Of a stretch of DNA of 64,000 nt, positions 6,101-60,073 are shown one piece after another. Position 1 is the first letter of the stretch. Each line of letters starts with the position of its first letter. The notes beneath the pieces are model-generated. The model made no database searches and was not told the origin of the DNA. It was given only the letters and a program-made list of their open reading frames with translations. The DNA lies in NCBI GenBank assembly GCA_001643675.2, contig LSRY02000034.1, forward strand, positions 744,001 to 808,000, given 5' to 3'. The position numbers and the translations under genes were made by a program. The stretch is from Monocercomonoides exilis PA203 (taxonomy: Eukaryota > Protista > Preaxostyla).

Positions 6101-7796
6101 ATTGAAGATATCAAATTGAACAGAGAAGATATCAAAGAGAAGAAAAATGAAGAACAAAACTGTTAATTGGGTGCAAAAACATATTGAAAGAAATTGAGAA
6201 AGAAGGTCCTTTGCATGAAATGGTTTCTTCCCTCCCCTGCCACCCCAACATCATTGAACATCTTCTCCTTTAGTGGAAATTTCATTTGAAACTGTTCGTT
6301 TTCTCTGGAGGAAAATTGGAAAATTTGAATTGACAAAGTTTGAAAAATGCAATGAGGAAGAGAAAACAGACTTTCGTTTAATGAAATAATAAAAATCTAC
6401 AGATTTGAAGAAAATGCAGTTTTCTGAATATTGTTGAAGTTTTATCAAGAATAGAAAGATTTGCTTTTTCAAGATGAAGCAACAATGGAATCAAAAATCA
6501 AAAAAGGCACAAAATGGAAGAAATATCATTTGGTGAACAAAAGATAGATAAAGTCAAATATGGGATTATTCCATTCCTTTTTTGCATTGACAACTTGATC
6601 GTGTAAATCAAACACCCTTTTTAACTTTTCGTTTTTCAAAGAACTTATGTGCATTCTCTTTGATTATTTTCTCCTTTCCAATCAATAACAACTTTTTAAA
6701 ATATATAGATTTATTTTTTCTATTTTTCTTTTATTTTCAATTTTCTTTTCTTTTTTTTTTTTTTTTAAGGTTGAAAATATTTTCCTTTAAAATTTGTGTA
6801 GCTAAACTGTTCTTTCTTTTTTTTCAATTTCTTTTTTCATTGAAGTGCTCTCTTTATTATCCTTCTTTGTAACTCATCAATTTCATTCAATTTGAAGCTC
6901 AATTTTTTCTTGAGGCATTCTTCTCAAAGCACTTATTCTTAGTGGAAATAACAAATGTGATTTTTTTTTCTTCACATTATGATTTATTCAACAATAGAAC
7001 ATGATTTTTGAATGTGTTGTGTAGTAATTTGTTAATTGAATAATAAAGTATTTATTTATTTATTTATTTTCTTTCTTTCTTAAATAATTAATTATTGCCG
7101 ATCAGTGTTATTGCAGCTTTAATGCATTTCACAATCATTCTCGTTTTGAAATTCTATTTGACAGATTAAAAACAGAACGTTTCAAATAAGTTGTTCATAA
7201 ATCAAATATAATTTCGATAGTTGTCATTTTCAGAAGAAGAAATAAAATTTTTTCATATCAACAAGAAAATAAATCTCTGTACAAAAAAACTGTTTCGATA
7301 TCATTTGTGTTAATGAACATCCACAAATTTTGTACTAACCTATTCAATTTTTTTATCATCGAAGCATACCAAAAAGTTGCAAAGGATGAAGAGAAGTTTT
7401 TTTTCAGCCTTCCGTTTTTTTTTTAAGCTGGAGGAAGATTTTCATAATTATCATTTCTTCTTATTTTTTAGATATGATTGTATCTATTCGATGAGGATGA
7501 TTATTTTTTGAATAAAACTTTTTTATTCAAAAAGCTCAGAACATTAAGTTTGAATAAAAAATAGAGACATATAAACTGAGAAAAAACACATTGAAATAGT
7601 GCTTATTCAATATTATTAAAAAATTTTTTTGATTAAGTTGATTATATTAGATGTCATATTTTTCCATTCAAAATTTTCTGTTCGAAAAAACTCCTTTGAA
7701 TATTTACAAATGAACATAGAAAAGAGAATATGCATTCTCATAAGTCCATCGTTTTCAATTCAACTTACACATTTGTTTTTGAAACAGTTCTGATGT

Positions 7797-8055
7797 GTGT
7801 GATTATTTTTGAAATCATAAATTTTTTCGGTGTGAAGGGTTTTCAAACGTTGTTTGTTTTTGGGAACATATTTTGTATTCAAATGCCTTATATTTTTATA
7901 ACTGCTGTCAAAACAAATGTTAAAGCTCAAAAAAGGATAAAGATATTTTTTTAAAAAAACCTTTTCACTTTTCAGTTTTCTTTTGTTAATATTCTATGGA
8001 TATTTTCCAACCGAATTTTTTGAATGGAAAAATATGATATCAAAAATATTCACCC
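7797..8055. mobile_element. ~259-bp MITE, family A, with ATGT 4-bp TSD; extra partial end to 8154 and a fragment at ~7640-7730
   Basis: TIRs G(G/T)GTGATTATTTTTGAAATCAT...ATGATATCAAAAATATTCACCC; ATGT at 7793-7796 and 8056-8059; interior is homologous (reversed) to 51772-52028. Confidence 0.75.
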
Positions 8056-9419
8056 ATGTATTAAGCACTTAAATGAAAAATCTTCACCTGATGACAAGCA
8101 ACCTTTGAAAAAACAGCACACCGAAAAAAGTTATGATTTCAAAAAGAATCACCCATGTTTGTTGATTTTGCAATACATAGAACAAATAATTATGAATGTT
8201 CCAAACTAATGAGAAATGCAATGCAATCTTTTTCGCCACGAAAAAAATTCTATTAAAAAAATTCTGAATCGAAAAACTATCAAATGGAATCAATAATTGT
8301 ATTTTGATTGAAATTTGTATTATCACTTTATTTCGGCAAATGGAGAAGATCCTGGTTCCACATGATCATTGCCCTTAATTACAAAAAACTAAGTTATGTA
8401 TTCTTATTGTGTTTATTAGGTTTTAGGGTTTTAATGAATTAAACACGTTCATATTTGATTTTGCGATATTCTAGGGTTTCACAGAGCAAAATTAGGATAA
8501 GAGTTAACCATAGAAGAGTTTTTCCAAATGAAAATGATAAAAATAGTCGATTGGATCCATTTATATCAGAATCTTCTTAACATGCATATTTTTTATTTGT
8601 TGATAATTGTTATGCTAATTTTTTCAAACATAATTCAAAATGTTCACACAGTTGATTTCTGTTTATGAAAAACATGAAATAAAAAAATTCACTTTAAAAC
8701 AATTTTCCAACAAAACAAAAAATTGAAAAAAAACAAGAAAAGTTGATTTGTTATTAAAGAAATAAAAAAGGTTAGAGTGGAATAAGTATTTTTCACTTGA
8801 TGTTGGATTTACAAAACGCTTATCTTTCCATTTGAAATAATTTGAAAAACAAGGAATTCTTGGCTGATTTGATATAAAAATCAATCAAAGAAATTCTTGA
8901 ATCATGATTTTGCATTCGTTCAAAAGAAAGCACAAAAAATAATCGAAAAATAATCGAATAATAAAAAAATGGGTCAAAATATTTTGCGTCAAGCATTTTC
9001 ATTGAAAAATTATGTTCTTTTCATTGACTTTTTGAGATCAACAAAACGCAATTAAAATATGTCCATTTTTTGACATTCGTGAAATGTTGGAAGACTTTAT
9101 GTTTTGATTTCAATGATGCCTATTAACGGATATGAAAATCAAATTTTTTTTGAAATCTGAGAAAATAAAATAAAGTTATGAGTGAAGCAAATTTTATATG
9201 TCTTGTGCAAAAAATGCTTGATAACCATTATTTTCCCCCAAAGAAACATTCTTTGAAGATGAGTCGTTTATATATGTTTTTTTTTATTTTTTTATTTTTG
9301 ATTTTATTTTTCGTAAAAAGATAATTTTTTGTTTGTTTGTTTGTAATTTAGGTCAACTATTTTTCAGTTTGTAGTTTTCGGTAATTTCGGCTATTTTTAT
9401 TAATTTTTCGATATCGTTT

Positions 9420-9677
9420 GGGTGATTATTTTTGAAATTATAACATTTTTCGGAGTGTTTGAATTTTTTCTCAGTTTTATTTCTATGGAGAGGAATTGTT
9501 CATTCGAAAGAAAAAAGCATTATTATTGTGAAAAACGATAATGTTTGAGATTTTAATAATGTTGAAATTATTTTCGAAAGGAGGAACAACATTTCATTGT
9601 TCATTTATCGAATTTCAAAGTGAATTCTCAAACTGAAATTTTTGAATGAAAAAATATGAATTCAAAAATTATCACCC
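9420..9677. mobile_element. ~258-bp MITE, family A
   Basis: GGGTGATTATTTTTGAAATT...AATTCAAAAATTATCACCC; flanks GTTT/ATTT. Confidence 0.75.
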
Positions 9678-9681
9678 ATTT

Positions 9682-9868
9682 GGGTGATTGTTTTTGGAAT
9701 ATTATTTTTTAGATGAATTTTTTTTTTTTATGAATTTGCGTTGAATCTTTGGAATAGAACATTAAAAAGAATAGTCTTATTTTTCATGAAGCATTTGACC
9801 TTCATTGATCTCAAATGTGAGTTTCTTTTCACTGGAATAACATTCGATTTTTCGAAAAATATAATTAT

Positions 9869-10975: not shown

Positions 10976-12706
10976 TTAAAGCGTTGAATCCATAACTTTC
11001 ATTTTTATTGGCACTTGGTGAATAAATGAAGCTGTTGATGTGTGGCGGTAACCAGGGCGTTCGCTTTCTTCCTCCTCTTCAACAGGATCGCTTGATTGAG
11101 ATTCAAATTTGATCCACACATGCTGCTCTTTAGCCTTTTCTTCAGGCACCCATGGATGAATGTTAACTGGCATCTTCAAATGGAGCACGCTTCCTTCCCA
11201 TTCTCCTTTGATTTCTTCGCTTTCTTCGTTATCGTTTGATTTATTGCTAAAAGAACTAAGCTTGGACAACAATGATATCAGAAGTTTCTTTCCACTTAAA
11301 TCTTCAATGATCTCCATCCATTTTTCTGGTTCTTCATCCAATTCAGCTCCTGATTCACTTCGCTTCAATTTCTTGACTTTTTCCATGAACTTTATTACCT
11401 CTCTCTTTCCATCTTCATCTAACTCCAGCTCCGATCCAATTGGTCCTTTTAGCAATCGCTCAAGGATATTCAATTCAAATGGAAGATTAATCTCACAGAG
11501 GCTTCTTGGCTTCAACAGAAAACCAGTTCCAGTTTCAGTTTCCGTTGTGAATGGCTCAATAAAGCGTTTTATCATTTCTTTGAAAGGCGCTTCATCAATA
11601 TCTTCTTTATTGTGTGTTTTGATTGCTCTTCCAAATTTGGGTTCTTTGGCTTGTCTCATTCTATCAAGCACAGATATGAAACCACTTAAAGGATATTCAA
11701 TATTTTCTTCAAATTCATCAGAAACAATCCATTTATCATCATCTTCGCTCGGAGGCAAAACTGGAAAAGCCATGAAACTGTCATCTTCATCAATTTCTGT
11801 CATATGAAATAGCACGTCACCTCTCAAATTTTTGTATTGCCCAAGTGTACAATTGTTAAAAGTGAGTTCTCCGTTTCCTATAACATTTCCAACTACAAAT
11901 AAACCACCTCCAATCCAAGGTGCTGTAGTTCCAGAAAAACAGCATGATTCAAAATGCACAGAAACAGCTCCCATTATTGATCCAATAACTGATTCTCCCG
12001 CATAAAGAATTGCTCCAGAAGTTGGCTTTGTGATATTAGTAAAGACTGAATCTTCAATTGTAATAAATGCGTTACCTCCATGAACAACAGCAATGGAAGA
12101 ATGAGGTAATGGAGCAAAGTCAAAGCTTAAAAAGCAGCATTTCGTAACAAATGATTTACCGCCAAAAAACTCTAAAAGACCTGATGTTCGGCCAAACAAA
12201 TCATCCTCCAAAACTCGCGGAACAAACGTACAATCATTGATGTTAACATCAGAATTATATGAACGTATTACGTTTGAATCATCATTATCAATTTCAAAGA
12301 TTATTCCCGAAACAGAAATTGATCCATGAATTATATTTATCCATCCCTGTGTACCAACTGGAGAAAAGTTCAGAATACATTCTCCTTTCGCAACAATTGA
12401 TATATTTGCACCTAAACAAATAAATTTCGAACAAAAATAAAAATATGAAAAAATCTGGAAAAAAATTATCAGCAAACCATCAATTTCAATGGGAGTTATT
12501 TCATATCTTCCTTCTCCAAGGATAATTTCCCCATTATGAGTGTCCTTCATTATTCGTTCAATTGCGATACCCGGAGTTTTCAGAGGGGAATCTTCTGATC
12601 CTGTGTTTTCATCAAGGCCATTTGGACTTAAATGCAAGATTAACCGCTCCTCAACATTCACAAATTCGTTGCAAGCAACAGATAGAATTAAAATTGCAAA
12701 AAACAT
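10976..12706 (-). CDS. Secreted/surface protein with pectin-lyase-like (right-handed beta-helix) N-terminal half; probable 66-nt in-frame intron 12412-12477
   Basis: Signal peptide; HLSPNGLDENTGSEDSPLKT..AI and ILGEGRY motifs typical of beta-helix N-caps; INDCTF/IEDSVF/FESCCF/FNNCT repeats; AT-rich GTTTG...TAG segment inside the ORF. Confidence 0.75.
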   Translation of the reverse strand: MFFAILILSVACNEFVNVEERLILHLSPNGLDENTGSEDSPLKTPGIAIERIMKDTHNGEIILGEGRYEITPIEIDGLLIIFFQIFSYFYFCSKFICLGANISIVAKGECILNFSPVGTQGWINIIHGSISVSGIIFEIDNDDSNVIRSYNSDVNINDCTFVPRVLEDDLFGRTSGLLEFFGGKSFVTKCCFLSFDFAPLPHSSIAVVHGGNAFITIEDSVFTNITKPTSGAILYAGESVIGSIMGAVSVHFESCCFSGTTAPWIGGGLFVVGNVIGNGELTFNNCTLGQYKNLRGDVLFHMTEIDEDDSFMAFPVLPPSEDDDKWIVSDEFEENIEYPLSGFISVLDRMRQAKEPKFGRAIKTHNKEDIDEAPFKEMIKRFIEPFTTETETGTGFLLKPRSLCEINLPFELNILERLLKGPIGSELELDEDGKREVIKFMEKVKKLKRSESGAELDEEPEKWMEIIEDLSGKKLLISLLSKLSSFSNKSNDNEESEEIKGEWEGSVLHLKMPVNIHPWVPEEKAKEQHVWIKFESQSSDPVEEEEESERPGYRHTSTASFIHQVPIKMKVMDSTL

Positions 12707-12789
12707 AGAAAAGTTAAAACTAGATTCAAGATTTTTGATCCCTTATTTTGTATTTCAAAAAATAAAATTACGGGTAAAATAAAAATGAT

Positions 12790-27845: not shown

Positions 27846-30800
27846 TCATTCCATCCTAGTGAAGCTCCCATCTGTGTCTTCGCTGTCTGCCTCTTCACAT
27901 CTCGATCCATCTCCAATATCCAACGCGTCTGATGCCGTCACAAACATCGACCCCATCGGCATCTTCATTAACAGCTCCCGCTTCACATCCCCCAATGTCA
28001 CCCGCTCATCCCACCCCTGCACCACACACTTCTCCTCCAACTCCCGAAGACTGCTCCCTCCCATCTTCTCCACCTTCGGCCGCTCCCCATTCGCTATCTT
28101 CTGCCCTGCCACCACTCCCTCATACTCCCCAAACGGGATCTCCAGCGTCACACACTCCCACACCATCATCCCAATCGAGAACACAACCGACTCCTTCGTT
28201 GCCCCCATCTTCTTGTTCATCAGCAGCTCGGGTGCCTTCCACCTCAGGCACTCCTTCCAATTGTCATCTGCATCCTCAAACGCTGATGAGGGAAGGGAGT
28301 CATCATCATCATCATCATCATCATCACCATTATCACTGGCAGATGTCACAACTGTTGATGATGAGATGGATGAGGAATCTGAGTCATCATCAGATAATAA
28401 GTCAGAGTGCGTTACAATGCAGATCACCATGTGCTCTGAGAATAGTACAATGTGAGGACTCAAACTGGAAAGGGAAGAAAGAGGATTTTCCATCTCATCA
28501 AAGGAGTGGAGAGCAAGGTTAGCCACCCAGAACAGGATTTGGGCAGCTGTCATCTCCCTTTCCTGCAGACTTCCAATAGCCATCTCCTTCTTCTCGTTCC
28601 TTCCATGCAACAGCATGAACAATGAATCCCTCAGATCCACAATCAGCTTCTCATGGGGAGACGAGCAGGCCATTGTATCCACCAGATTCGACATCGACGA
28701 TGTGGTTGGACACAGACTTTCCGATCGAACAAATGTGGATTCTGTGTCTGATGTGTCTGTGGATGAAGTGGATGAAATGGATGGCGATGATGTTCTCTTC
28801 CTCGAAACATCATCTTCTTTTTCATCCACCTTCTCCAGCATCCATTCTGGGATTTTGTCAGAGTCTCTTCCAAGGATATATTCTGTTGATCCACTCTCTG
28901 ACAGAAGATGTTCTGATGACTCTGAATGCTCCAGTGTCTTGTCATACACTCTCTTCCTTATCCTCTCTTCATTTTTCTTTTCTGCCTCTTTCTCTGCTCT
29001 TCTCCACTGCTCCTCTGGTGACATCTCCATCGTCACCATCTCAAACGCCTTCGGATCTTTTCTGATATTATCGTTTACAATCTCTCTCAGATCTTCTGCT
29101 TCATTCTTCACCTTTCTCCACCGAACAACCAAAACAACAATCACTGCCAGCAACACAATGAAAACTGCACATGCAACCACAATAATAACCCAAAATGAGT
29201 TTGATCCTTTCCCTCCTTGAACAACATTTCCATCACCATTCTTCTCAGGCTCTGTTCTGTTCTTCAGGATGAAAGAGTCAGTTGATGATTGTTTTCCAGC
29301 ATCTCCAAACAGAATGCACACTCTCACTTCTGCCTCGTTTTCTGCCTCATTTATTGATTCCTTTGCCAATCTTCCTTCAACTTCTGTCTCTGACACATAT
29401 CCACTCTCATCACACTCATGCTTTTCTATCTGCTTTTCTTCTCCAATCTCCTTCACAACCATGAATGACAAGTCACATGGCAGCAGCTCCTTCCCTTTGA
29501 ACACAATCTCCACTTCTTCTCCCACTTCCTTTGCTTCAACATTTTCCAGGACTGGAATGAAGAATGGGGATGCTCTTTTAGAAATAATCCCTTCAAAATT
29601 GCATCCTTCATTCAGAATCCAAAGTGATGAATTGTCTTTCACTCCATCACCACCTTTCAAACTGGAGATTGTCAGTGAGGCAGAACTTGGGCAAACAATG
29701 TTTCTTCTGACTGATGGGTAATTCTCAATCGAAAGATTGTTGTCCTCAAATCTTCCATCTTTGATAATTATTGCGCCTCCACTCACACTCATCCCTCCCT
29801 TCGACGAGCTGCAAATCGTGGTGTCTCTCACAACTGCTTCACTCTTCGACAAGTCAACAATTGACCCATTCCATTTGCACACTTCATCAGGAATCTCATT
29901 CTCTTTTGTTCCTGAAATCAAATTTCCTTCAAACTTGCACAACTTCATCCAAATATTCTCACTCATTGCTGTTGCCACTTGACTCCCTTTAAGCGATTTT
30001 GACACACATTCATGGAAAGAGCAGTTACGAATCTCAAATCCACTCATTGGATGTGTTGTGCAAATAATGCTTGATCCAGAAGTTGATCGGCTGATGTTTG
30101 TGAACGATGACAACGCTAATGAAAAAACGAGTGAAGAATGGCCATTTTCAAATGAGATCAGACTTTCATTTTGCAAAGAGATATTTGTGGCTGTCAACTT
30201 TGAAATGCTCACTTTCTCACTCTTTCCACATTCAATCGCTGAACTCTTGCATAGGACATCATCCACTATCAGCTCGTCAAATATTGAACCTTCAGAATTC
30301 AATATCTGGAACATAGGCTTCGAAAATACCAAATGTCCGATACTACATCGATCAGACTCAAATATCCCATCTTCAACAATCAAGAGAGAAAAGTCAAAAA
30401 GGGTCCGCGAATTCTCCATTGATCCGCTCTCTGATAAGAATGAAACAGATTCGAGAATAAGAGATCCATTCAATTGGTGTATTAAGCATGAGCAGACAAC
30501 ATTCCCCATTCCACCAAAAACGAACGACACCTTCTCAATTCGAACAGACTCTGATGTCGTCACAGCTTCTTCACCAGCCAAGTTCATCTCATTCACTTTT
30601 ATCTCCCCATTCCTGCTCGCCTCCATCGACTTGATTGTCACCTTCTGAGCTGAGCATGAACCAGTCAATTCTGTTTCATTCCATATCAGCAGCTGCGAAT
30701 AATCCTATGGGATGATGTGGCTCACCCCAACATTCAGCGATGAGCATGTGCTCTTCATCTCCCCACACTGCTTGCTGTTGCTGTTATACCCCACAATCGA

Positions 30801-36800: not shown

Positions 36801-37856
36801 AGACCATTCATCTTTGAATAAACAATTCTCCACATATGCTAGAATTGTCATTCCTTCTATTTCTATCCCAGCATTTCCATTATTTGTTGATTGCATATAA
36901 TAGCACTCAACAAGTGTGAAATGCTTCACAGCGCATTCTGCAATGCTCAGAGGAAACATTCCCCCTCCTCATGCGGATGTTGCATTGCATTTCACAAAAG
37001 ATGAATTCTCAACAGTCAGCGTTGCATTCGAATTTTCATGCACATAAAGTGCTCCACAACATGGAGCAGAACATCCATTCCATTCAGCGTTCATAAAGTT
37101 CTGTGTTTCTGTTGTTGATAGCCTGTCTGTATTCTTCGCTCTCCAATGCACTCTTTCGTTGTTCACGAAAGTGCAATTGTTGCAGGAAAAGAAAACAGAT
37201 CCTTCTGTTCCGCTCACAATCCCTCCTTCAAGCACATTCATTGAACTTTCAACTTGACAATCTTCCATTACGCTCATTTTCATCATCAGCTCTTTTTCAA
37301 TTTGCTTCGTCTCTCTTTCGCTATGTTTCTTTGTGATATTCACAAATTCACAGTTTTTAATTCCTTCAAAACATCCTGAACCTTCTCTCAAAAGGCTTCC
37401 ACTCCCACAAAATGCAATATTCTTCCAAACACATTTTCTCACAAGCAACAATGAATCTTCAGCATTCATCTGCACAACGCTTTCCATCAACTCAAAATTG
37501 TCGTTGTTTTCAAAATTCAAGGAGGTATTGATCATTTCGCATGTTCCTTCATTTTTGACATAATGATGATAAGAATCACTCTTTTCCAAAAGTTGACTGT
37601 TTTCAACAACAAGGAGTGATCTTGTGAAGATATCGAATGCTAAGCAGCCATCGCGCTTTTCGACCAATATTCCCTTCAATTTAACAGTTGAATTGAAAAT
37701 TTTGCTGAGTACATGAACAATACTTCCCTTTGCCGAAGCATCACTCTTCTTCGCAACAGGAATGCAAAAGGTGACTTTTCCGTTGCTCAGCAGTTCATTT
37801 TCATCATTGCCACAGAATGATAAACTCAAGCACAAAACCAAAACAAAAGGAGTCAT
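27846..37856 (-). pseudogene. Disrupted giant receptor-like gene (signal peptide, Cys/Gly-rich beta-helix-like ectodomain, TM, C-terminal pseudokinase)
   Basis: Collinear same-strand ORF fragments (36969-37856, 36723-36959, 35032-35727, 34270-35031, 33376-34239, 30755-32956, 27846-30668) broken by frameshifts/stops and one foldback insertion. TM FWVIIVVACAVFIVLLAVIVVLVV; kinase C-lobe LRWKAPE...VFSIGMMVWE...IPF. Confidence 0.8.
35743..36723. mobile_element. 981-bp non-autonomous foldback DNA transposon (family B), ~350-bp TIRs
   Basis: GGGTTACACTTT(C/T)ACCTCTGACCC... is mirrored at the right end, with near-perfect complementarity 35743-~36100 vs ~36365-36723. It interrupts the host reading frame. 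Confidence 0.92.
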
Positions 37857-38942
37857 TTCAACAAAGTGATAATGGGTTGGAGAAAACCATTATAGCAGAA
37901 GCATTCGCAAATTATTATTATTCCCATTTCAATAACAACTCTTCTCATTCAGCTTCCATTTTCTGGTACAAATTTTCTTCTTTTATTTCCATTTTTCATA
38001 TTCAATTAATTGTGATTATTAATTCCAAGAAACTTCCATTTTCAATAGATTTCTATTTTTTCTTCAATTTTTTAAGATTTTGCCTTTCCGACCATGTCTT
38101 GTTTGAATGAAATTCCTCATCCGCTCAGCTCCTTTATCATCTTCGTCCATCTTCATAAAAATGTTTCCTTTCACCGGAATTTATCTGTTTTCGATGCATG
38201 ATTTGATAGACTTTTGAAAATACAAATGGAGATAAAAAATATAAAAAAAAGAAAGATGAAAATGAAAATTTAAATACCGAGAAATAATTCCGAATGTTCA
38301 AAAGCAGCATATTATTGATTTGCTTCATTGAATAATATTGTTTCAACTCTTCATCGTGTATCCAAATCCTCCTTTTTTGGAACGTCTTTACAGGAATTTT
38401 TTTTCATTTTTTCAGAAATAAATTGATTTTCAATTCCATATCCTTTGTTCTTTTTCTTTTCTGATTTTTCTTCATTTTCGACCTCTTTTGATCCTCGTTT
38501 TGCTCTCTTCTATTTCATGTCAAATTTTTTCAAGCCTTCTTCTTCTTTAATGCATTCAATGTTTTCCATCAGAACTGTATTCAACTTTATTTTTCTTTTT
38601 TCTAGTTTGTTTTTGAATCAATCTAACTTCAGAGCATTTTCAGTCAGTAATCCAATGAAATTCTTCCTTTTTCAAATATTTTTCTATTCTATTAAAAATA
38701 CCTCAATTCAGCGATTTCTCACCTTTATTGAACATTAACAATTGCTTTTTAATGAATAAGAGGAGATTTGGAGATTGCTTACTCATGGAAATTGCTTCTT
38801 CCAAAAAAAAAGTTTTCCATATTTCCATTTCCGCAATTGAGTTGTTATGTTGTTCACATCTTTGTCATACCAATGGATTGTTGGAGAGTTTCTGTGATTA
38901 ATAATCAAAATAACCCATTTTTCTTATGATTTAATACAGATA

Positions 38943-47000: not shown

Positions 47001-47897
47001 TCAACAACCAAAAAGTTCTGTGCAAGAAGTGATGAAAGAGCAATTTTTCATTTTTTAAGGTTTGCACTATTTTTCGATAATTGTTTAAATTGTTTTAATC
47101 ATATATTTTTTTTCACATTTTTTCAAATTATTCAAACTCTAATTTCTCTTTATTCAATCAATTAATACAAAAACATATGAACCCTCACTTTTCATGGTTT
47201 TATTTCTTTCAACCTTTTCTTCTAAGTTTGAGTGATGTGTCTTTTCCATGAACTCTTTCCAGTGTTTTTATTGCCATTGGAAACAGAACAGATAAAAAAG
47301 ACTGAACAAAAAGCCATTTCCACAACACTATCTGCTACGACAGATATTTCTGTGACACAACTGACTGCCTCCTCTCCACACAGCAAGACTTCCTCTCTTC
47401 GTCGGATACTCGATATTTCTTCTCTTCATCCCCATCGCCTTCCTCATCTTCTTCTTTCTCATATCAACTATCCACCGATGGCTTCATCTTCACCTTGTTT
47501 GAGTCAGTCAAGCTCCCTTCCTCCAAAGCGAACATCCTTTCATATTTCCAACAAAAGACATCTCTTTTTCCTCCATTTCATATTATCAACTAAATTTATT
47601 TCTTCCCCATCACCCTCCAGATCTCCTTCTCCTCCTCACTTTTGCTCCAGTATTCCTCTATTTCTGACATTGAATTCCAGCAAATGCTCTCTTGCATATC
47701 ACATTCGCAATTCTTCGAATATACGAACGCAAGGAGCAGGTTTGCTCCTCAATAATGAGTGTTATTATAAATTATGGGTGGTTTAAGATCAAACTTCGCT
47801 TTCAATTTAACTTCTTCACATACCATTGTCCGCTTTTTATATGACGCAAGATACGGTTTGAGTTCCGAATAGCGACGGCGAGGACAGAAGTTTTGAT

Positions 47898-49058
47898 TTG
47901 ATGCACAGACTTGCAAGGGTAGAAGATATGATTGAAGAAATTTCAAGAAGCCAAACACTAGCAATGCAGTCGGGAGCTACGGAGTTGCTGCCAACGAGGA
48001 AAGTGAAGAGGGAACGAGCAAGGAGAAGAAGCAGATCGAGATCGAGCGAGTCGGAGTTGGATTCAAATTTTTGTGATCTGATCGCGAGAGGGAAACAAGG
48101 AAAGCGTGAGAAATTACGTCGCACATATAGCCGAATGAGAAGACGGGAAGACGAAGAGGATAGCGAGTGGGATTCTGAAGAGCTGGGAGCGCTGCAAGAG
48201 AAAGAAGGAACCGAAGACTTCACAAGAATTTTTCCCAGGGAGTGGTTGACACCTCGGAGACAAGCGAGGGAGTTGAGGAAGTATATTGAATTTTGCAAAG
48301 CTGGCTCGATAAGAATGAATAAAGTCATTCTAAATACTTTTATTCCGGAGAGCGAGAAGGAATTTTTCACGGGACACACGGATACAAGCTGGAACGCGCT
48401 TGCCAGAACAGTCATCACAACAAAGGGTAGAAGAGACTCACCAGAAGCCAGCCGAGCAATTGAACTCCTCCAGCCTGCCCTTGAATCGGGCTTTGATGCT
48501 GCAAAAGCGATTGCAGCCCTCACAGTGAAAGAATCGAGGAGAACGTACTTAGAGGAAGAAGAGAAGGAGCGTTTTATGGATCTTTTCAAAGCGTTCTCCC
48601 TGATAGTTGACTGTATCAGTCGTATAAACCTTTTGAAGGTTGTACCCCAGGCGAACTGGGAGAACGGGAAAGAGTTCCTTGAGGGAGGAATGATCAAGAA
48701 GGTGCAGGAGAACCTGAGGAAACTAGTGGAGAGCACTAGCTTTTTTCAAGCAGGGGGAGATGCAGAAAGATACGGTGCATCTCCTGACTCCACAACAGGT
48801 TTCGGGCCCACAACAGCCAGAGGGGGACTTCCGAGAATATACAGTTCGGGAAGGAGCACCCAAGGATTTGTATACAGACAGCTCCAGAGAAGAGGATACG
48901 GCAGGAGCTTCACAGACTTCAAAGGAAAGAAGAGAACACCCCAGTTCCAGGCCCAGTTCGTTCCAACCATCGCTGGGAGGCCAGCCCCTATCATTGGACC
49001 ATTTCCCCCTGCCCCCTCAAGGACCCAAGGAGGGACAGCGATGGAACCATCAATCTGA
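47898..49058 (+). CDS. Gag-like ORF1 of DIRS-like element
   Basis: 386-aa basic ORF immediately upstream of RT, with an R/G/P-rich C-terminus; assigned by position. Confidence 0.6.
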   Translation: MMHRLARVEDMIEEISRSQTLAMQSGATELLPTRKVKRERARRRSRSRSSESELDSNFCDLIARGKQGKREKLRRTYSRMRRREDEEDSEWDSEELGALQEKEGTEDFTRIFPREWLTPRRQARELRKYIEFCKAGSIRMNKVILNTFIPESEKEFFTGHTDTSWNALARTVITTKGRRDSPEASRAIELLQPALESGFDAAKAIAALTVKESRRTYLEEEEKERFMDLFKAFSLIVDCISRINLLKVVPQANWENGKEFLEGGMIKKVQENLRKLVESTSFFQAGGDAERYGASPDSTTGFGPTTARGGLPRIYSSGRSTQGFVYRQLQRRGYGRSFTDFKGKKRTPQFQAQFVPTIAGRPAPIIGPFPPAPSRTQGGTAMEPSI

Positions 49059-49066
49059 TCCAACAA

Positions 49067-51169
49067 GTGGCCTCAGGAGCAGAGAGGCAGAGGAGAGAGA
49101 AAGAAGAGAGAGAAGAGAGAGCCGCGCTTTGCAGCGAGACCGAGAGAGGAGAGAGAGAAGCAAATTACAGAGAGACGAATACACGACGAGCAACCGTAGC
49201 TCCGGGCGAGACGCGATCAGGGACGGAAATGCAGAAACAACAGGTGAACGTCAGAGGGACTCTGAACTCGTTTGACCAAAGAAAGGAGAGAGAACGAGAA
49301 ATCACGGGGGATTCGGCGAGAGAGATATCGATAGAAGATGTGCGACACGAGACAACGAGAATAGAAGGAGACTCCGATTATCCCCGGGTGACGGGACAGA
49401 AGAGCGAGAGGGAGAACGGGAAGATAGTTTGGAGAAATTCTGGGATTGTTATCGGGAACCCAATTGGGAGCGCCCGGGAGGGGAGCTCGAGGACAGCTAT
49501 ATTAGATACTCTCGAAGAAGAAGGGAATACACAGACGCAACTTGGCCACAAGACGCAAGGAGTGAAGAGGAGTGCAGTGATTGGACCACCGAGGGAGCCA
49601 CTTCCGGAGAGGTTAGTGAACAGGCTGAGCGAGTGGAAGAGGATTGGGGGAGACAAACTAGTGAGCCGTGGTATAAAAGCTCGATGGAAAAGTCCCCTCT
49701 TTCCAATCTCACTCGAGGAGAGAAAACACAGACAAGAATTTCGGGGAACAACGGAGATGACGAGCAATTATTTGTCCCTCTTGGAGGAGGAATTGAAGGA
49801 AGGAGTGGTGAACCCCATACAGGAGTCGGAGGTGAAGTGGTTCAACCCGACATTCATGGTCCGGAAGAAGAACGGAAAGTGGAGGAAGATTCTGGATTGC
49901 AGAATTTTAAACGAGGAAGTGCTAGGGAAACACTTCAAGATGGATTCCCAGGAGACAGTTGTGGAACTCCTGGAGGAGAACGATTGGATGACTACGCTCG
50001 ACATATCGAGTGCTTATCAACATGTCAAAGTGGATGAACAACTCATCCACTTCCTGAACTTCAGCTTTCAAAGTCAACGCTATTCAGACGTGGGGATGCC
50101 ATTTGGAGCAAAAGACACGCCCAGAGTATTCACGAAGATAATGAGACGGGTAGCGTCATATATCAGAGAACATTGGAAGGAAAAGCTGATGATATATCTG
50201 GACGACATCCTCCTCATGCACCCAGACAGGGATGCATTGAGATCGATCTCACAGGAGATAGCCCAGTTACTGAGAAATCTGGTGTGGATACTGTCGGAGG
50301 AGAAGCTGAAATTAGAACCCACAAGGAGTGGGGAGTTTCTGGGATGGCTGTGGAATTCAGAGAAGATGGAAGTGTTGCTCCAAGAGAGGAAGAGAGTGCT
50401 GCTCCTGGGGAATGTGCGAACCTGGATAGCACTGGCAAAGAGAAAGAGACAGAAGACGAGGGATTTTGCCGCACTCCTCGGAAGGTTGAACTTCGTGAGA
50501 CTGCAACACCCGCCAGCGAGCTTGTGGATGAAGCGCATGCAACATGTGCTGAGGCAGGCAATAGCCCGCGGGGGCGGGAAGGGAACGGTGATAGTCAGCT
50601 TAATAATTCTGGGAGAATTAACACATTGGAGGAAGGTCCTGCAAGAGAACAGGCCAAGGAGTCTGAAGAGAAGAAACAGATCAGCAGAACTTGCAACGGA
50701 CGCTTCAGAGCTGGGATGGGGTGCAGTGTTAACAATACTGAAAGAGAACAAAGAGGAGAAGATTTATGTCCACAGAAGTTGGACCCTCCAGGAAAGAACA
50801 TTTCCGATCAACGAGAAGGAGTCCAGAGCAGTATAAAGGATACAAGAGAGAAAGTGAGAGTGGTTGCAACAACAGAAGGTAGATCATATTCGTCTGAAGA
50901 AGGAAAACATGTCCACGAGATGAACGATACAGAATAAGAGGGGTGCGCCGTCGCTCATTCCAACACTGAGGGCATTGGAGAAGAAACTGAACAGCCTGGA
51001 CATTACGACGCAAACGGAACTTCTACCGGGAGAGCAGAATATGGAAGCAGATGCACTCAGCCGGATGGCGAAGAAGCCGGACTATGCATTGAATGGGGAG
51101 ATAGTTGCAGAGTTATTACAAACAATCGCACAGAGAAAACATCAGAAGCTGGGAGAGAGGAAAATATGA
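49067..51169 (+). pseudogene. Reverse transcriptase-RNase H of DIRS-like element, disrupted in RNase H
   Basis: FMVRKKNGKWRKILDCRILN, HFKMD, LDISSAYQHV, MPFG, IYLDD, FLG; RNase H ATDASELGWG, INEKESRAV*, then LPGEQNMEADALSR after the break. Confidence 0.92.
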
Positions 51170-51771
51170 GAAAAGGTTTGCAATTAAAGAAACGAGACTT
51201 ACAGTTTTGAGAAGATAGAAAGCAAAGAGAAATAACTTTATCACAGAACTCCTCAGCCCGACCACCCTAGCGTAGGAGAACACTCCTCATTATTCACAGC
51301 AGCGTTTACGAGCTGACTGGAAGCAAACACACTACAACACAGAGAAAGATGCACATTAACAGAGGGAAACATGGAGTGAGTTGTTTAAGACAAATAATAA
51401 TGAATTCATTTGAATCGAATTCACGGAAAGGAATGTCTCAGAAGCACCCCGAGAAAGAAAAGGAGAATAGCTAGGTGCCGCACCGTCATCCGCACGCCCT
51501 CAGTTCATCTGCCTCACGATATTGTGCTAGGCAGGAGGGTTTAAGATCAGAAGAGAAGAAAGAGAGAGAGAGGGATTTCAGAACTTATTATTGAGGAGAA
51601 AACCTGCTTTGTTTCTGCGTTCTATCAAAATATTTGTTTGAGTTGAATAGAACAAAATTCATAAAGCAAAAAAATTACGTACTAAATATTCACTGAAAAA
51701 AACATATTTTGTTGAAATAAATTCATTAGATGTTAAAACTTCATTAATTATATTTTTCATCACAAAAACTT

Positions 51772-52028
51772 GGGTGATTATCTTTGAAATCATATTGTTT
51801 CAGACAAAAATTTCAGTTCGAAATTTTCTCTTGAATATTAACAAATGAACAGTGATAAGTTAAAAGGCTTATTGAATACGTTTTTATCATTGATTCGTAA
51901 AAGCCATTTGTTTAAAAAAACAATTATCAAACTTTTTCTCTTTTCTATTAACATTTTCTTTCAAAAAACAAACAATCTTTGAAAAATCAACACCCCGAAA
52001 AAAGATATGATTTCAAAAATAATCACCC
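51772..52028. mobile_element. 257-bp MITE, family A, perfect ACTT TSD
   Basis: GGGTGATTATCTTTGAAATCATAT...ATATGATTTCAAAAATAATCACCC; ACTT at 51768-51771 and 52029-52032. Confidence 0.85.
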
Positions 52029-52280
52029 ACTTAAATACATTTTCCTTTCAAAATAATTTTCTTTCAAATTCAGCAGTTGCATAACATTCATACTCAATGT
52101 GCATCTTCATTATTAATTAAACTTTATAATGAACTGAAGTTGATGACATTTTCGGATCAATTCGTTCTTCATTTAAAAATTCTGTCCCACAATTGCGTTA
52201 GATTTAAAATGATCTGATATGTAAATTGGAAAAGGTGTTCGTGAGCAACGAACAACATTTCACGATCATCATAAATCCAT

Positions 52281-54818
52281 ATGGGAAATGATATTGATTC
52301 AATGAGCAATTGTGCATCTGACAGTTCTGAAATGAGCAGTTCGACAGAAAATAGCGGAACTTTGGGAGATGAAGATGAAATCACAGAGGCAATGCGACAT
52401 ATCATCAATACCAAAACAGAACCACCAGAATGGTTGAGGCACGATGTTACTCTTTCAGATGATAACGGACGGACAATGGCAATGCATTGGATACGGAAAG
52501 TCAAGACAGAACCACCCAAGTGGATGAGACATGACAAAAAACTTGCAGATAGGAAAGGACAGACAATGGCCATGTACTGGATTGAATATGTGAAGACTGA
52601 ACCACCAGAATGGATGAGACATGACAAAAAACTAACTGATGAGGACGAAAAGACAATGGCCATGTACTGGATTCGACATGTCAAAACAGAGCCACCCAAG
52701 TGGATGAGGCATGACAAAAAACTTGCTGATAAGGATGGAGTGACAATGGCCATGCACTGGATTGAATATGTGAAGACAGAACCACCACATTGGATGAGAC
52801 ATGACAAAACACTTGCAGATAGGAAAAAACAGACAATGGCTATGATATGGATAGAAAATGTGAAAACAGAGCCACCAGTATGTATGAGACACGAGATCAC
52901 TCTTGCGGATAAATATGGACATACAATGGCAATGCATTGGATTGCAGAAGTCAAAACAGAGCCTCCAGAGTGGATGAGACATGATATTAAACTTGCTGAT
53001 AACAAAGGAAGAACAATGGTTATGATATGGATTGAAAATATCAAAATAGATCCTCCGGAATGGATGAGATACGACATCACACGTGAAAAAGGAGAAAGTG
53101 GTACAATGGCCATGTTATGGTTACGGAAAGTTAAGATAGAACCGCCTAAATGGATGAATTATGAAAATACGATTAGAGACAAAAAAAAAAGAACAGATGC
53201 AATGAATTGGATTATGGAAAATAAAAATGAACCGCCAGAATGGATGAGACATGACAAAAAATTAACTGATGACGAAGAAACGACAATGGCCATGCACTGG
53301 ATTGAATATGTGAAGACAGAACCACCAGAATGGATGAGACACGATATAACAATTAAAGGTGGTTGGAGAAAACGGACGATGGCAATGCATTGGATCAAAT
53401 ATGTGAAGACAGAGCCTCCTGAATGGATGAGACACGATATAGATCTTGGTGATGAGTATGGTGAAACAATGGCCATGTACTGGATTGAAAATGTCAAAAC
53501 AGAACCACCAGAATGGATGAGACATGATATTACTCTTGCTGATAGTAATAAACAGACAATGGCCATGTTGTGGGTACGGAAAGTTGAGACAGAGCTGCCA
53601 GAGTGGATGGATTATGATAATACGCTTCGTGACGATAATGGAAAAACAGAAGCAATGCGTTGGATTGTTATGAATAAAACTGAACCACCAGAAAGGATGA
53701 GGCATGATATAACACTTGTTGATAGAAAAGGAAGAACAATGGCCATGATATGGATTGAATGTGTTCAAGCAGAACCACCAGAGTGGATGAGACACGATAT
53801 AACATTTGGAAATAAGAATGGAAAGACAATGGCAATGTTTTGGATTGCGAATGTCAAGACAAATCCACCAGAATGGATAAGGCACGACATTAATATTAAA
53901 GGTGGTTGGAGAAAAAGGACAATGGCTATGAAATGGATTAAAAATGTGAAGACTGAACCACCAGAATGGATGAGACACGATAATACTCTTGTTGATAAAG
54001 AAGGACAGACAATGGTCATGCTTTGGATTGAATATGTGAATACAGAAACACCGGAATGGATGAGGCATAACATTACTCTTGCTGATAACAGAGGAAGAAC
54101 AATGGCCATGCTCTGGGTTGAATATGTCAATACGGAACCACCAGAGTGGATGAGACATGACAAAAAACTTACTGATGAGGACGAAAAGACAATGGCCATG
54201 TACTGGATTGAATATGTGAAGACAGAACCACCTAAGTGGATGAGACACGATATCACAATAAAAGGAGGTATTGGGGAACGAACAATGGCCATGTGCTGGA
54301 TTGAAAATGTAAAGACAGAACCACCAGAATGGATGAGACATGACAAAAAACTTGCAGATAGGAAAGGACAGACAATGGCCATGTACTGGATTGAATATGT
54401 GAAGACTGAACCACCAGAATGGATGAGACATGACAAAAAACTAACTGATGAGGACGAAAAGACAATGGCCATGTACTGGATTCGACATGTCAAAACAGAG
54501 CCACCCAAGTGGATGAGGCATGACAAAAAACTAACTGATGAAGAAGGAACGACAATGGCCATGTACTGGATTGAATATGTGAAGACAGAACCACCTAAGT
54601 GGATGAGACATGACAAAAAATTTTATTGTAAGGATGGAGTGACAATGGTAATAATCTGGATTATTTTTGTGAAAACAGAGCCACCCAAGTGGATGACATA
54701 TGATGTTACACTTGCTGATGAAGAAGGACAGGCAATGGCCACGTTATGGGATATATTTGTCAAAACAGAACCACCAGAATGGATGAGACATGACAAAAAA
54801 CTTACTGATGATGAGTGA
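52281..54818 (+). CDS. 845-aa tandem-repeat protein: ~26.6 units of 30 (occasionally 31) aa, consensus KTEPPEWMRHDxxLxDxxGxTMAMxWIxxV; ankyrin-like hairpin motif
   Basis: Uninterrupted ORF with a 90-nt period and synonymous variation among units, preceded by an acidic ~45-aa leader. Confidence 0.88.
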   Translation: MGNDIDSMSNCASDSSEMSSSTENSGTLGDEDEITEAMRHIINTKTEPPEWLRHDVTLSDDNGRTMAMHWIRKVKTEPPKWMRHDKKLADRKGQTMAMYWIEYVKTEPPEWMRHDKKLTDEDEKTMAMYWIRHVKTEPPKWMRHDKKLADKDGVTMAMHWIEYVKTEPPHWMRHDKTLADRKKQTMAMIWIENVKTEPPVCMRHEITLADKYGHTMAMHWIAEVKTEPPEWMRHDIKLADNKGRTMVMIWIENIKIDPPEWMRYDITREKGESGTMAMLWLRKVKIEPPKWMNYENTIRDKKKRTDAMNWIMENKNEPPEWMRHDKKLTDDEETTMAMHWIEYVKTEPPEWMRHDITIKGGWRKRTMAMHWIKYVKTEPPEWMRHDIDLGDEYGETMAMYWIENVKTEPPEWMRHDITLADSNKQTMAMLWVRKVETELPEWMDYDNTLRDDNGKTEAMRWIVMNKTEPPERMRHDITLVDRKGRTMAMIWIECVQAEPPEWMRHDITFGNKNGKTMAMFWIANVKTNPPEWIRHDINIKGGWRKRTMAMKWIKNVKTEPPEWMRHDNTLVDKEGQTMVMLWIEYVNTETPEWMRHNITLADNRGRTMAMLWVEYVNTEPPEWMRHDKKLTDEDEKTMAMYWIEYVKTEPPKWMRHDITIKGGIGERTMAMCWIENVKTEPPEWMRHDKKLADRKGQTMAMYWIEYVKTEPPEWMRHDKKLTDEDEKTMAMYWIRHVKTEPPKWMRHDKKLTDEEGTTMAMYWIEYVKTEPPKWMRHDKKFYCKDGVTMVIIWIIFVKTEPPKWMTYDVTLADEEGQAMATLWDIFVKTEPPEWMRHDKKLTDDE

Positions 54819-55414: not shown

Positions 55415-56095
55415 GTGTTAAAGAAGGTTGATGAGAAAGAAGAGACAAGGAAGAGATTACCATCTATCTCATCAACTTCAACAGCAAAAACAGAATTAAC
55501 ATTTGTTCAATCTGAGAGTCTGCGTCCAACAATTTCATCGATGTCTTACTTACTGGCTGCAACGGCCTGTTCTTCGCCACATGAGAAGCTGATTGTGGAT
55601 CTGAGGGATTCGTTGTTCATGCTGCTTCATGGGCTGAATAAGACAAAAGAGATGGCGATTGGGACTCTGCAGGAGAGGGAGATGACAGCTGCGCAGATCC
55701 TGTTCTGGGTGGCTAATCTCGCACTCCATTCATTTGACGAAATGGAGAATCCTCTCTCTTCTCTTGCCAATCTCGGCCCGCACATTGTGCTGTTCTCAGA
55801 GCATATGGTGATCTGCATTGTCATGCACTCAGAGCTTTAATCAGATGACTCTGATTCATCATCCATCTCATCGTCAACTGTTGTGACATCTGTCAGTGAT
55901 GATGATGAAAGTGACTCCCTTCCCTCATCGGCATTTGAGGATGAAGATGATGATTTGAAGGAATGCCTCAGATGGAAAGCACCTGAGCTGATGATCAACA
56001 AGAAGATGGAGCAACAAAAGAGTCAGTTGCCTTTTCTGTTGAAATTATACACTGTGTCTGAGGTTAAAGATCCCATCAAAAGAGCAGGAAAATAA
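55415..56095 (+). pseudogene. Fragment of the cytoplasmic pseudokinase region, paralogous to ~28200-28850
   Basis: Near-identical ACSSPHEKLIVDLRDSLFMLLHG...ILFWVANLALHSFDEMENPL...ECLRWKAPEL; internal stop at 55838-40; no ectodomain or TM. Confidence 0.88.
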
Positions 56096-57336: not shown

Positions 57337-60073
57337 ATGATTGAAGCACATCTCCCCGCGAGTGTTGTGGATGTGCACCGCCACAACACGGAAAATGCAA
57401 TTCTGTGGAAAGAGCTGTCTTTGAACCAGCTGAGCTACGCGTTTACCAGCGGGCTCACTCCGCCGACGAGACATTTAACCGTGACGATTGCCTGCTCTTC
57501 ATGGAGGCTGGTATGCGCTTGCTGTGGAATCTGCTGAATATGCCTTTCAATTTGGGTGCTGCTCCGCCGGGAAGCAAAGACACAGAGGTATTTGTGTGTG
57601 TACAGAGCAATGTGAAAATATCCAATTGATTGACGAATACAATTTTTCAAATTTTAATGTGAGGGCTGAGCATTGGGTGGAAGAGAGAGATCTGAGGAAG
57701 GGGATGATGCATCAGATGGGAGGGATGGGTCTGGGTGGAAATGGAGGTGGGGGAGAAGGAGGAAAAAATGATGATGATAACAACGGAGGAGACGGAAGTG
57801 GTGGAAAACAAGGAGGAGCCAACGGAGTTGGAATGAGTGCCATTTCGATTGAGCCGCGTGAGGGACATCTTGAGACAGGAGAAGAATGCGTAGTGAGATT
57901 TTCGTGCAACCACCACAGCGAGGGAATGCACCAGACATCGTTCATCTGGCAGCTGCTGGGCGGCGGGAAGCAAGTTGTTTTGGAGATCGCGTGCCAGACG
58001 CTGAGTCCAATTGATGAGCATGTTGTGTTTGAGAGTGGACGAGGCGCAGAGGCGACGGCGATGCACTTTCTGGAGCAGGTGCCCATCGGAGAGATGGATG
58101 CACAGATGCAGTCGATCGTGCTGCGGAACGAAGGCTGGACGAGCATCGACTACAGACTCGACCTGTCTGATGTGGAGAGGCTGAATGCATCTGCATCTGA
58201 TTTCCCTCTGTTTGAGTGCCCTGTAACGAGGGGGATTGTGCCAGCATATGGAAAGCAGACGATATACTGGCGCTTCCGTCCGCTGATGCAAAGAGGTTAT
58301 TTGGTAAGGATTCCGATCAAGCTGGGAAGCAGGTACAGTTCGATGAGTGTGATGAATGCAAATGTTGGAGGAGGAGCAGGGGGAGGAGATGGGAATGTGA
58401 ATGGAACGAATCATTCACCATCATCCAACAATGGAATAGGTATGGGTGTTGGTGGAGCACAAGGAGGAGCACAAGGAGCAGCCGGAGGAGGAAGTGATGG
58501 AACAGAAGGCATCACACACACGGAAACAGTTCTGCAAGCGCTGCTGACAGGAGACGGTTTCATCGCGAAGGAAGGAGCAGAGCCACTTGTGGATGAGAAA
58601 AAGACAACAATTCCAGCTCCTCTTTCTCCACTGCCTGGCCAGCTGTGCTTATTGTCACATGAGCGAATTGGCTTTGGGAGCGTGGCGGGTGGGAGCATCG
58701 AGCGGAGGCTGGTGTGTCTGGTGTGTCCGCGTGTGAGGAGACACCCTGCACTGCAGAAGAGGGCGTATGAGAAAGGAGAGAAGAGAGGCATCCTGTTTGA
58801 CTGGGAAGAGAGCCATCCGCTGATCAAGTCGCAGGTTGTAACGATTCGGCCGATCAGAGGAGAGATTGCAGAAGGAGAGAGATGTGTGTGTGTTGTGGAG
58901 CTGCATGCACCGATAGCTGCTCAAGTTGTGGATACTTCACTTCAGTGCAACATCAGAAAAGCAATCTTCACTTCCTCCATCTCGAATTCTTCAATTGCGA
59001 ATCAGAATTCTTCATCGTCTTCTTCCATTAATGGTGTTGGTGCAAGTTCAGAAGTTAATCAAATCTTTTCTTATCATCGTTTCCCTTCAGCACGTCGTTC
59101 ATCTTCTGTGAATGGTACTTCTTCTTCTTCCTCTTCTGTTGTTGCATCCAACTTTAACTCAGGCAGCATTGATGATCACTCCACCGTCGCCTCACTCTCC
59201 ACGCAGCACTCTCAACTGGGAAAAATCAAAGGACTTCCTTCTTCTTCGTATCCTGTGCCTTCTCAATCTTCATCTTCCTCCTCACTGGCAATTGCCCCGC
59301 ATTAGCCAAGCATCCACAAGCAGCCACCGAGAGTGAGTGTCATTGAGCGCATGACGAAATCCCGGGGCATTCAAATAGCCACACGACTTGAGCAGTTCCG
59401 CCCTGTCCTTGAAAAAGCGAGAAACGAAGAGAACCAGTTTCTGTTGGCGCTGGCGAGGCAGCCTGTTGATCCTCTTTCAGCAGCTGCTGCGTCAACACTG
59501 CAGTCACGAACATTGGCCAGTGGCATTCCTCTCAATGAAACCACGAAGCAGGCACTGGAGATAGCAGCACAGGCAAAAGAGGAGCAGAAGATCAGGATTT
59601 TGCAAAAGGAGAAGGAGAAAGAAGCGTTCAGGATGTATAACCTCACCCCAACGACGTCTGCCACGAAAGGAACAACAAGAAAGAACAAAGGGAACTTGGG
59701 TCCGCTGAGAGAGTCGCGAAGCAGCAGTGCTGGAGGAAGGAGGATGACTGATGCAGATGAAGTGAGCGGAGTGAATGTGTCTCTTCCTCCCTTGTTGAAT
59801 CCGTCTTCTGGCTCTTCTTCTGGTTCAGGTTCAGTTTCAGTTCCATTGTATTCTCAGCAGGGAATAGCACAACAGGGGTCTATGCAATCACAGGGGATTC
59901 AGGGAATTCAAGGGCTTATTCCAACTGGAGCAATGAACAAGCAAGGCAGCGCAGTTCGTCTGCCTCCTTTGGGGATGCAAGAGCCAAATGAAGGGGGAAG
60001 AGTACATGAAGGGCGGATGTCGTCGAAGAAGGAGAAGTTTAGTGGGTTTGATTGGCTGCAGGATTTGGATTGA
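57337..60073 (+). pseudogene. CFAP65/CCDC108-like ciliary protein (Ig-like domains), 5'-truncated and frameshifted
   Basis: LWKELSLNQL, FNLGAAP, ISIEPREGHLETGE, QVPIG...QSIVLRNEG...DFPLFEC...G.VP...WRFRPL...Y.V.IPI match the CFAP65 central region as recalled. Frame changes near 57480, 57620 and 59300. Confidence 0.65.

Follow-up and report, generated by a model that had tools for sequence, protein, structure and literature searches.

The window analysed here, a stretch of 64 000 nt of Monocercomonoides exilis DNA, carries on its plus strand an intronless open reading frame (52281..54818) that encodes a repeat protein of 845 aa, which appears to be derived from ankyrin and is built of units of 30 residues. 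The ORF listing, the substitution pattern between the units and matching RNA contigs support this gene. We consider it likely that the product is an ankyrin-derived intracellular protein binder. About 27 units are predicted to stack into an ankyrin-type solenoid of shortened repeats. Compared with ankyrin, a unit would keep the hairpin and the inner helix but lose most of the outer one. Two conserved tryptophans probably pack the thinner core, and a putative groove of seven variable positions would grip other proteins in the cell. As the protein is without a catalytic domain, its role would be that of a scaffold, an adaptor or a decoy.

A coding repeat array and its surroundings

The protein starts with an acidic, serine-rich tail (aa 1–34, 52281..52382), read directly from the sequence, in which inspection by eye revealed no hydrophobic signal stretch and which is probably disordered. 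Its MG start does not fit the N-myristoylation consensus, and this modification was set aside. The tail is followed by a cap-like half unit whose residue at ankyrin position 7 is acidic (aa 35–53, 52383..52439), by 26 full units (aa 54–836, 52440..54788), each predicted to comprise a hairpin, a helix of 8–9 residues, a Pro-Pro segment and a helical turn, and by a final partial unit with the stop codon (aa 837–845, 54789..54818). Tandem Repeats Finder reported 26.5 copies with a period of 90 nt (score 1367) and a single-unit HMM counted 27 units, in agreement with the approximately 27 units of the initial annotation. Among the full units 23 are 30 aa and three are 31 aa long, and all of these length variants preserve the frame. 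No family passed its cut-off in Pfam or NCBIfam, in agreement with the earlier statement that no other domain is present, and neither Pfam nor the sequence indicated a C-terminal effector domain.

The tryptophan and the second proline of the scaffold are found in all 26 units, the threonine in 25 and the methionines in 24–25, and each unit contains two conserved tryptophans. Of the hairpin residues, D occurs in 20, G in 15 and T in 25 of the 26 units. The scaffold had been described as near-invariant, which is right for these residues, whereas whole units differ considerably, with a median identity of 60% between the 30-aa units. The variable sites were read correctly from the start: exactly the nine listed residues occur before the W, and the di-residue after WI is drawn from a recurring set (EY eight times, EN four, RK three, RH and IF twice each, seven more once each).

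The frame contains no internal stop codon; across the repeat the other five frames have 60, 94, 8, 4 and 36 stops. Long antisense ORFs over the repeat were rejected as genes, being shadows of the codon pattern. By comparing the 22 distinct 30-aa units we observed 1807, 1486 and 2867 differences at the first, second and third codon position, respectively, and a pN/pS of 0.44 over all positions. The third-position excess and this low ratio indicate that the reading frame is under purifying selection. At the variable positions we saw no sign of positive selection (pN/pS 0.87, for sites picked after their entropy was seen and with synonymous sites near saturation).

The neighbourhood of mobile elements and a gene fragment, an exactly duplicated block of 203 nt and the low RNA depth over the unique parts could also be read in another way, namely that slippage or recombination expanded a repeat without selected function, which is now transcribed as junk. 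However, an open frame of 2.5 kb in which three length variants stay in frame, the codon-position signature with its low pN/pS and the scaffold kept in distant relatives all argue against such an origin, and we regard it as improbable.

Eight sequencing runs from two studies contain the stretch. DNA contigs match the unique parts of the gene with 0 differing letters; none was found to span the entire array, and the exact unit count is that of the assembly. The initial annotation had counted a lack of expression against its proposal, but we observed RNA contigs with 0 differences over unique parts in three runs of one study (for example at 52259–52443, 52975–53312 and 53948–54164). As these contigs are unstranded, shallow (depth 3–6) and come from a single study, the RNA support is moderate. 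For the neighbouring retroelement RNA cover was absent in 32 of 33 run-bins, with deep DNA cover. At 80% likeness three more DNA contigs carry the otherwise unique 5′ part of the gene, and many contigs from DNA and RNA runs contain hairpin sequences that are not found in the window gene. Together, these contigs point to paralogues in the same organism.

The array itself bears traces of its growth. A block of 203 nt within units 2–3 (52521..52723) is identical to one within units 22–23 (54330..54532), which may reflect a recent duplication or conversion, or possibly an assembly error. The acidic residue at position 7 was found in 6 of 112 first motifs of the relatives and in 0 of 253 later ones (Fisher p 8e-4). 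In the window protein it occurs in the N-terminal half unit and also in two internal units, unit 9 (53160..53249) and unit 14 (53613..53702), the latter having unit 9 as its nearest unit. Such cap-type acids inside the array suggest that it arose by head-to-tail joining or duplication of shorter arrays. The hairpin variant of a unit is only weakly associated with its helix variant (Mantel r 0.28, p 0.003), which fits unit duplication plus exchange, a process that would yield new binding surfaces among the paralogues.

Just upstream of the gene lies an element of 259 nt with inverted termini of 30 nt (51771–52029), copies of which, ~70% alike, are located at 7795–8062 and 9419–9688; its very deep DNA cover indicates a high-copy, MITE-like element. 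Further upstream we found a DIRS-like retroelement with a gag-like ORF, RT and RNase H (47735–51608), bounded by inverted termini of 26 nt (47735–47760 and 51583–51608). It is multicopy in DNA, and stops break its frames downstream of RNase H. The gene was rejected as cargo of this element because it is located outside the inverted termini. Downstream of the gene a kinase-like fragment (55415–56029) shares 77% identity with the kinase-like C-terminal portion (28184–28834) of a gene on the minus strand (27849–30704); the fragment is one of a high-copy family that is abundantly covered by RNA. The window also contains pieces of a CFAP65-like flagellar gene (57488–60070), a tubulin gene (465–1799) and three long ORFs with hydrophobic leader-like starts and no Pfam match (4079–6097 on the plus strand, 10979–12742 and 36972–37889 on the minus strand), which, judged by their sequences, are possibly a surface protein family. 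The tubulin, CFAP65-like and kinase-like genes mark the DNA as eukaryotic, and its gene families suggest an anaerobic flagellate, probably an oxymonad.

Predicted fold and variable positions

Sequence comparison of the window protein with databases gave little. The Pfam ankyrin models had no match to it at E ≤ 10, PDB sequences none under E 2.5 and PHROG short weak ones only. Profile searches of the PDB returned no ankyrin at E ≤ 10, and one profile (A1) matched RING entries only. Ank_2 and Ank_5 each weakly match 4 of the 40 rows of an alignment (A2), with best E values of 0.003–0.005. The canonical ankyrin unit has 33 residues according to PMC8229355, and in the literature, mostly outside subscription journals, we found no description of a 30-residue ankyrin variant. 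One relative (P0013) bears the precomputed label PF26802, which could already name the 30-residue repeat.

Structure prediction was more informative. We used AlphaFold2 with an in-register alignment of 40 rows, 11 of them overlapping segments of the window protein, to model five units (155 residues). The model reached a pLDDT of 95.5 and a pTM of 0.88 (94.5–95.5 pLDDT for the five models), with 142 of the 155 residues above 90. Each predicted unit shows a hairpin, one helix of 8–9 residues, a Pro-Pro segment and a three-residue turn, and beta bridges are assigned in two of the five hairpins. The two antiparallel helices per unit that are a trait of canonical ankyrins are absent from the model. 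A Foldseek search (E ≤ 0.001) yielded 40 matches, and the ten best are all ankyrin domains or DARPin fusions (TM 0.58–0.65, probability 1.00). In a VIA-align search of 48,161 chains the best match aligned 150 of 155 residues with an rmsd of 3.0 Å and a Z of 13.3, a value close to the caution line for helical repeats. Among the 50 matches listed, 36 name an ankyrin-type protein or a DARPin in the title, most of the remaining 14 we take to be ankyrin-bearing proteins, and none is a PPR or TALE entry. The ankyrin matches range from Z 10 to 13 and from 2.6 to 4.3 Å rmsd; in them the 155 model residues overlay ~170 chain residues, corresponding to five ankyrin units, so that each modelled unit is shorter by 3–4 residues. 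An independent model from the ESM Atlas, which resembles an ankyrin cluster with a TM of 0.82 (feature score 0.89), serves as a lead only.

The model thus predicts that the units are shortened ankyrin repeats with the outer helix trimmed to Pro-Pro plus one turn, where the residue-level placing of the deleted segment follows from the register of the motifs and from the superpositions. The structure prediction that the initial annotation had proposed gave a confident ankyrin-like stack, while the single face it was meant to reveal came from mapping positions onto ankyrins. Two of its readings gained support: the likeness of the hairpin to that of ankyrin is borne out by the D, G and T counts and by the confident model, and the AlphaFold2 model likewise has a short PP-W segment replacing a full helix in the second half of the unit. 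Its idea of a distinct solenoid family is not supported. The alignment-based model superimposes on ankyrins without a shift in register, and relatives are linked to Pfam Ank_2 by sequence, which argues for an ankyrin-derived variant.

A model built from the single sequence was of lower quality (pLDDT 76) and, when searched with Foldseek against the PDB and viral structures, matched nothing at E ≤ 0.001. With VIA-align, PPR10 ranked first (Z 8.7, rmsd 9.3 Å), and ankyrins followed at Z 5–6, the best of them with an rmsd of 3.8–4.7 Å. This model, with its PPR top match, was superseded by the alignment-based one with its higher pLDDT and its ankyrin matches.

We analyzed the variability of the units by numbering positions from the hairpin Asp as 1. 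The seven positions of highest entropy are 2, 3, 5, 10, 13, 14 and 30, the last corresponding to ankyrin position 33, and their values are about even (2.0–2.7 bits). In PMC4308713 ankyrin positions 2, 3, 5, 10, 13 and 33 are randomised on the concave binding face, these sites on the hairpin and first helix form a continuous binding surface, and Asp1 and Gly4 are named as conserved ankyrin residues. PMC8229355 assigns the partner contacts of ankyrins to the hairpin fingers and inner helices. All six positions given in PMC4308713 are within our top seven of 30, for which the chance is 1.2e-5 at fixed register, and the register is fixed because the hairpin D, G and T set it. In addition, the entropy profile resembles that of a 33-aa ankyrin among the relatives (P0180; Spearman 0.86 over positions 1–14). 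It is therefore likely, on the basis of position mapping, that the seven variable positions line one ankyrin-type groove, in line with the single binding face suggested for the variable residues at the outset.

The initial annotation had also raised the possibility of a TALE- or PPR-like solenoid whose units would each recognise a single nucleotide via the di-residue. The array is indeed long and regular (27 units, compared with 14 in the next of the relatives examined and a median of 3), the di-residues recur, some hairpins are basic, PPR proteins lead the matches of the low-confidence model, and RNase L/2-5A, an ankyrin domain holding an oligonucleotide, is among the fold matches. However, not two but seven positions vary, about equally, and they coincide with those used for binding in ankyrins; the matches of the confident model are ankyrins. 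The 161 variable sites contain 41 basic and 35 acidic residues, and the array has a net charge of −7. Moreover, the family uses 75 different di-residues in 121 units, and the recurrences within the gene track recent unit duplication. We consider such a code highly improbable, and the window protein offers no new recognition code.

Relatives in protists and virus-like contigs

Word-index searches for relatives gave 3, 50 and 8 matches. With HMMER we found 311 clusters at E ≤ 0.001 among 1.84 billion representatives, 192 of them at 1e-10, and examined the best 150. Weak matches may be RING-only because the search profile included RING columns, and the family may comprise up to about 300 sequence clusters. 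Of 228 unit spacings in the family 122 are 30 aa, 192 are 29–31 aa and 5 are 33 aa, and the repeat scaffold is kept in distant relatives. The Ank_2 cut-off was passed by 4 of 156 relatives: one (P0180) is a typical 33-aa ankyrin, to which the family profile matches at 5.4e-17, and three of the 30-aa type (P0070, P0105 and P0189) clear it narrowly. A C-terminal RING was over cut-off in 18 of the 156 relatives scanned, a share that is inflated because profile A1 held RING columns. In these proteins the repeat module would select substrates for ubiquitin ligation, a task that, judging from the fusions, may be the usual one in the family.

Members were present in 15 of 16 metagenome loci, often in tandem and with long unbroken ORFs on gene-dense, AT-rich contigs; L008 and L017, the latter a pattern match from prokaryote genomes, were rejected as members. 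Four loci (L004, L007, L012 and L014) contain adjacent short genes that consist solely of 4–7 repeat units and have N-terminal caps in common. They include the units nearest to those of the window protein, with up to 69% best-unit identity. Three short members (P0013, P0022 and P0091) begin with MGT-x-S-S/K, which resembles a myristoylation signal.

The setting of these loci raises the question of a viral source, that is, whether a DNA virus infecting anaerobic protists was the donor of the gene, which then expanded in the host and now binds viral or host defence proteins in conflict. This origin is compatible with the protein-binder reading, to which it would add origin and purpose. Besides the tandem members with long unbroken ORFs on gene-dense AT-rich contigs and the lack of an intron in the window gene, two contigs are of interest here. 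On L016 a member lies ~360 nt from a capsid-like gene (876–2567, minus strand) for a protein of 563 aa, whose look-alikes (score 0.97–0.98) include capsid-labelled clusters as well as clusters from Parabasalia, Preaxostyla and viruses, and this contig has the appearance of a small protist-infecting DNA virus. Among endogenous virus capsids PMC10120064 describes a group from Metamonada, with which the L016 gene is in keeping. The gene-dense contig L002 (1–12778, 20% GC) has a member, a resolvase/recombinase and a methyltransferase-like gene and is virus-like, yet no hallmark gene was identified on it. On the other hand, three of five IMG/VR scans came back empty and none of the 12 loci from the other two held a family member, and the link to viruses is therefore suggestive only. 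The GenBank phages gave one weak match (22%) in two records of one virus, which was not accepted as convincing; no capsid, packaging or other virus hallmark gene was seen near the window gene, which has the retroelement, the small inverted-repeat element and the kinase-like fragment as neighbours, and most contigs, at 1–3 kb, are too short to call viral. Altogether, we think a viral acquisition possible but doubtful. A broader proposal is that a one-helix mini-ankyrin common to anaerobic protists and their DNA viruses was expanded by the host into a recombining set of intracellular binders for virus–host conflict, in effect a natural DARPin library, with RING-fused forms directing bound targets to ubiquitination; we judge this combination unlikely.

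Comparison with known repeat proteins

Should the model be correct, a stack of ankyrin repeats can be stable with its outer helix nearly gone, which would widen the definition of the fold and give protein design a more compact binding scaffold with a tryptophan core. The family, of up to ~300 clusters, is found in anaerobic protists and virus-like contigs and is mostly missed by the standard ankyrin models.

The protein-binder reading rests on the likeness to ankyrin (PF00023 Ank, PF12796 Ank_2, PF13857 Ank_5). The same D-x-x-G-x-T hairpin, inner helix and mode of stacking are seen or predicted, the variable positions are the same (2, 3, 5, 10, 13, 14 and 33 in ankyrin numbering), and solved ankyrins such as 2rfm, KANK1-3, gankyrin, Notch and ankyrin-B are its counterparts. 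In contrast, the ankyrin unit has 33 residues instead of 30 and an outer helix in place of the predicted Pro-Pro and three-residue turn, while the window protein has two conserved tryptophans per unit and goes undetected by the Pfam ankyrin models. By unit length, the second helix and failure at the Pfam cut-off it would not be a canonical ankyrin, whereas hairpin, fold overlap and binding positions agree with one.

Ankyrin-RING E3 ligases are a known protein class, and relatives of the window protein likewise join the repeat to a C-terminal RING, although the window protein itself has none. TALE repeats are near-identical units of 33–35 aa that differ chiefly at one di-residue, and PPR repeats are helix-turn-helix units of ~35 aa. 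The window protein shares with both a long tandem array and a recurring pair of variable residues. Unlike TALE repeats, its units are 30 aa long, have a median identity of only 60%, vary at seven positions and are net acidic; unlike PPR repeats, its 30-aa units have one helix in the confident model and an ankyrin-type fold. In PMC4308713 and PMC8683736, the DARPin and ANK-N5C designed libraries combine a fixed framework with varied groove positions as well, and the window gene with its paralogues resembles a natural library of this type, although with 27 units, a shorter framework and a diversity generated by duplication and exchange.
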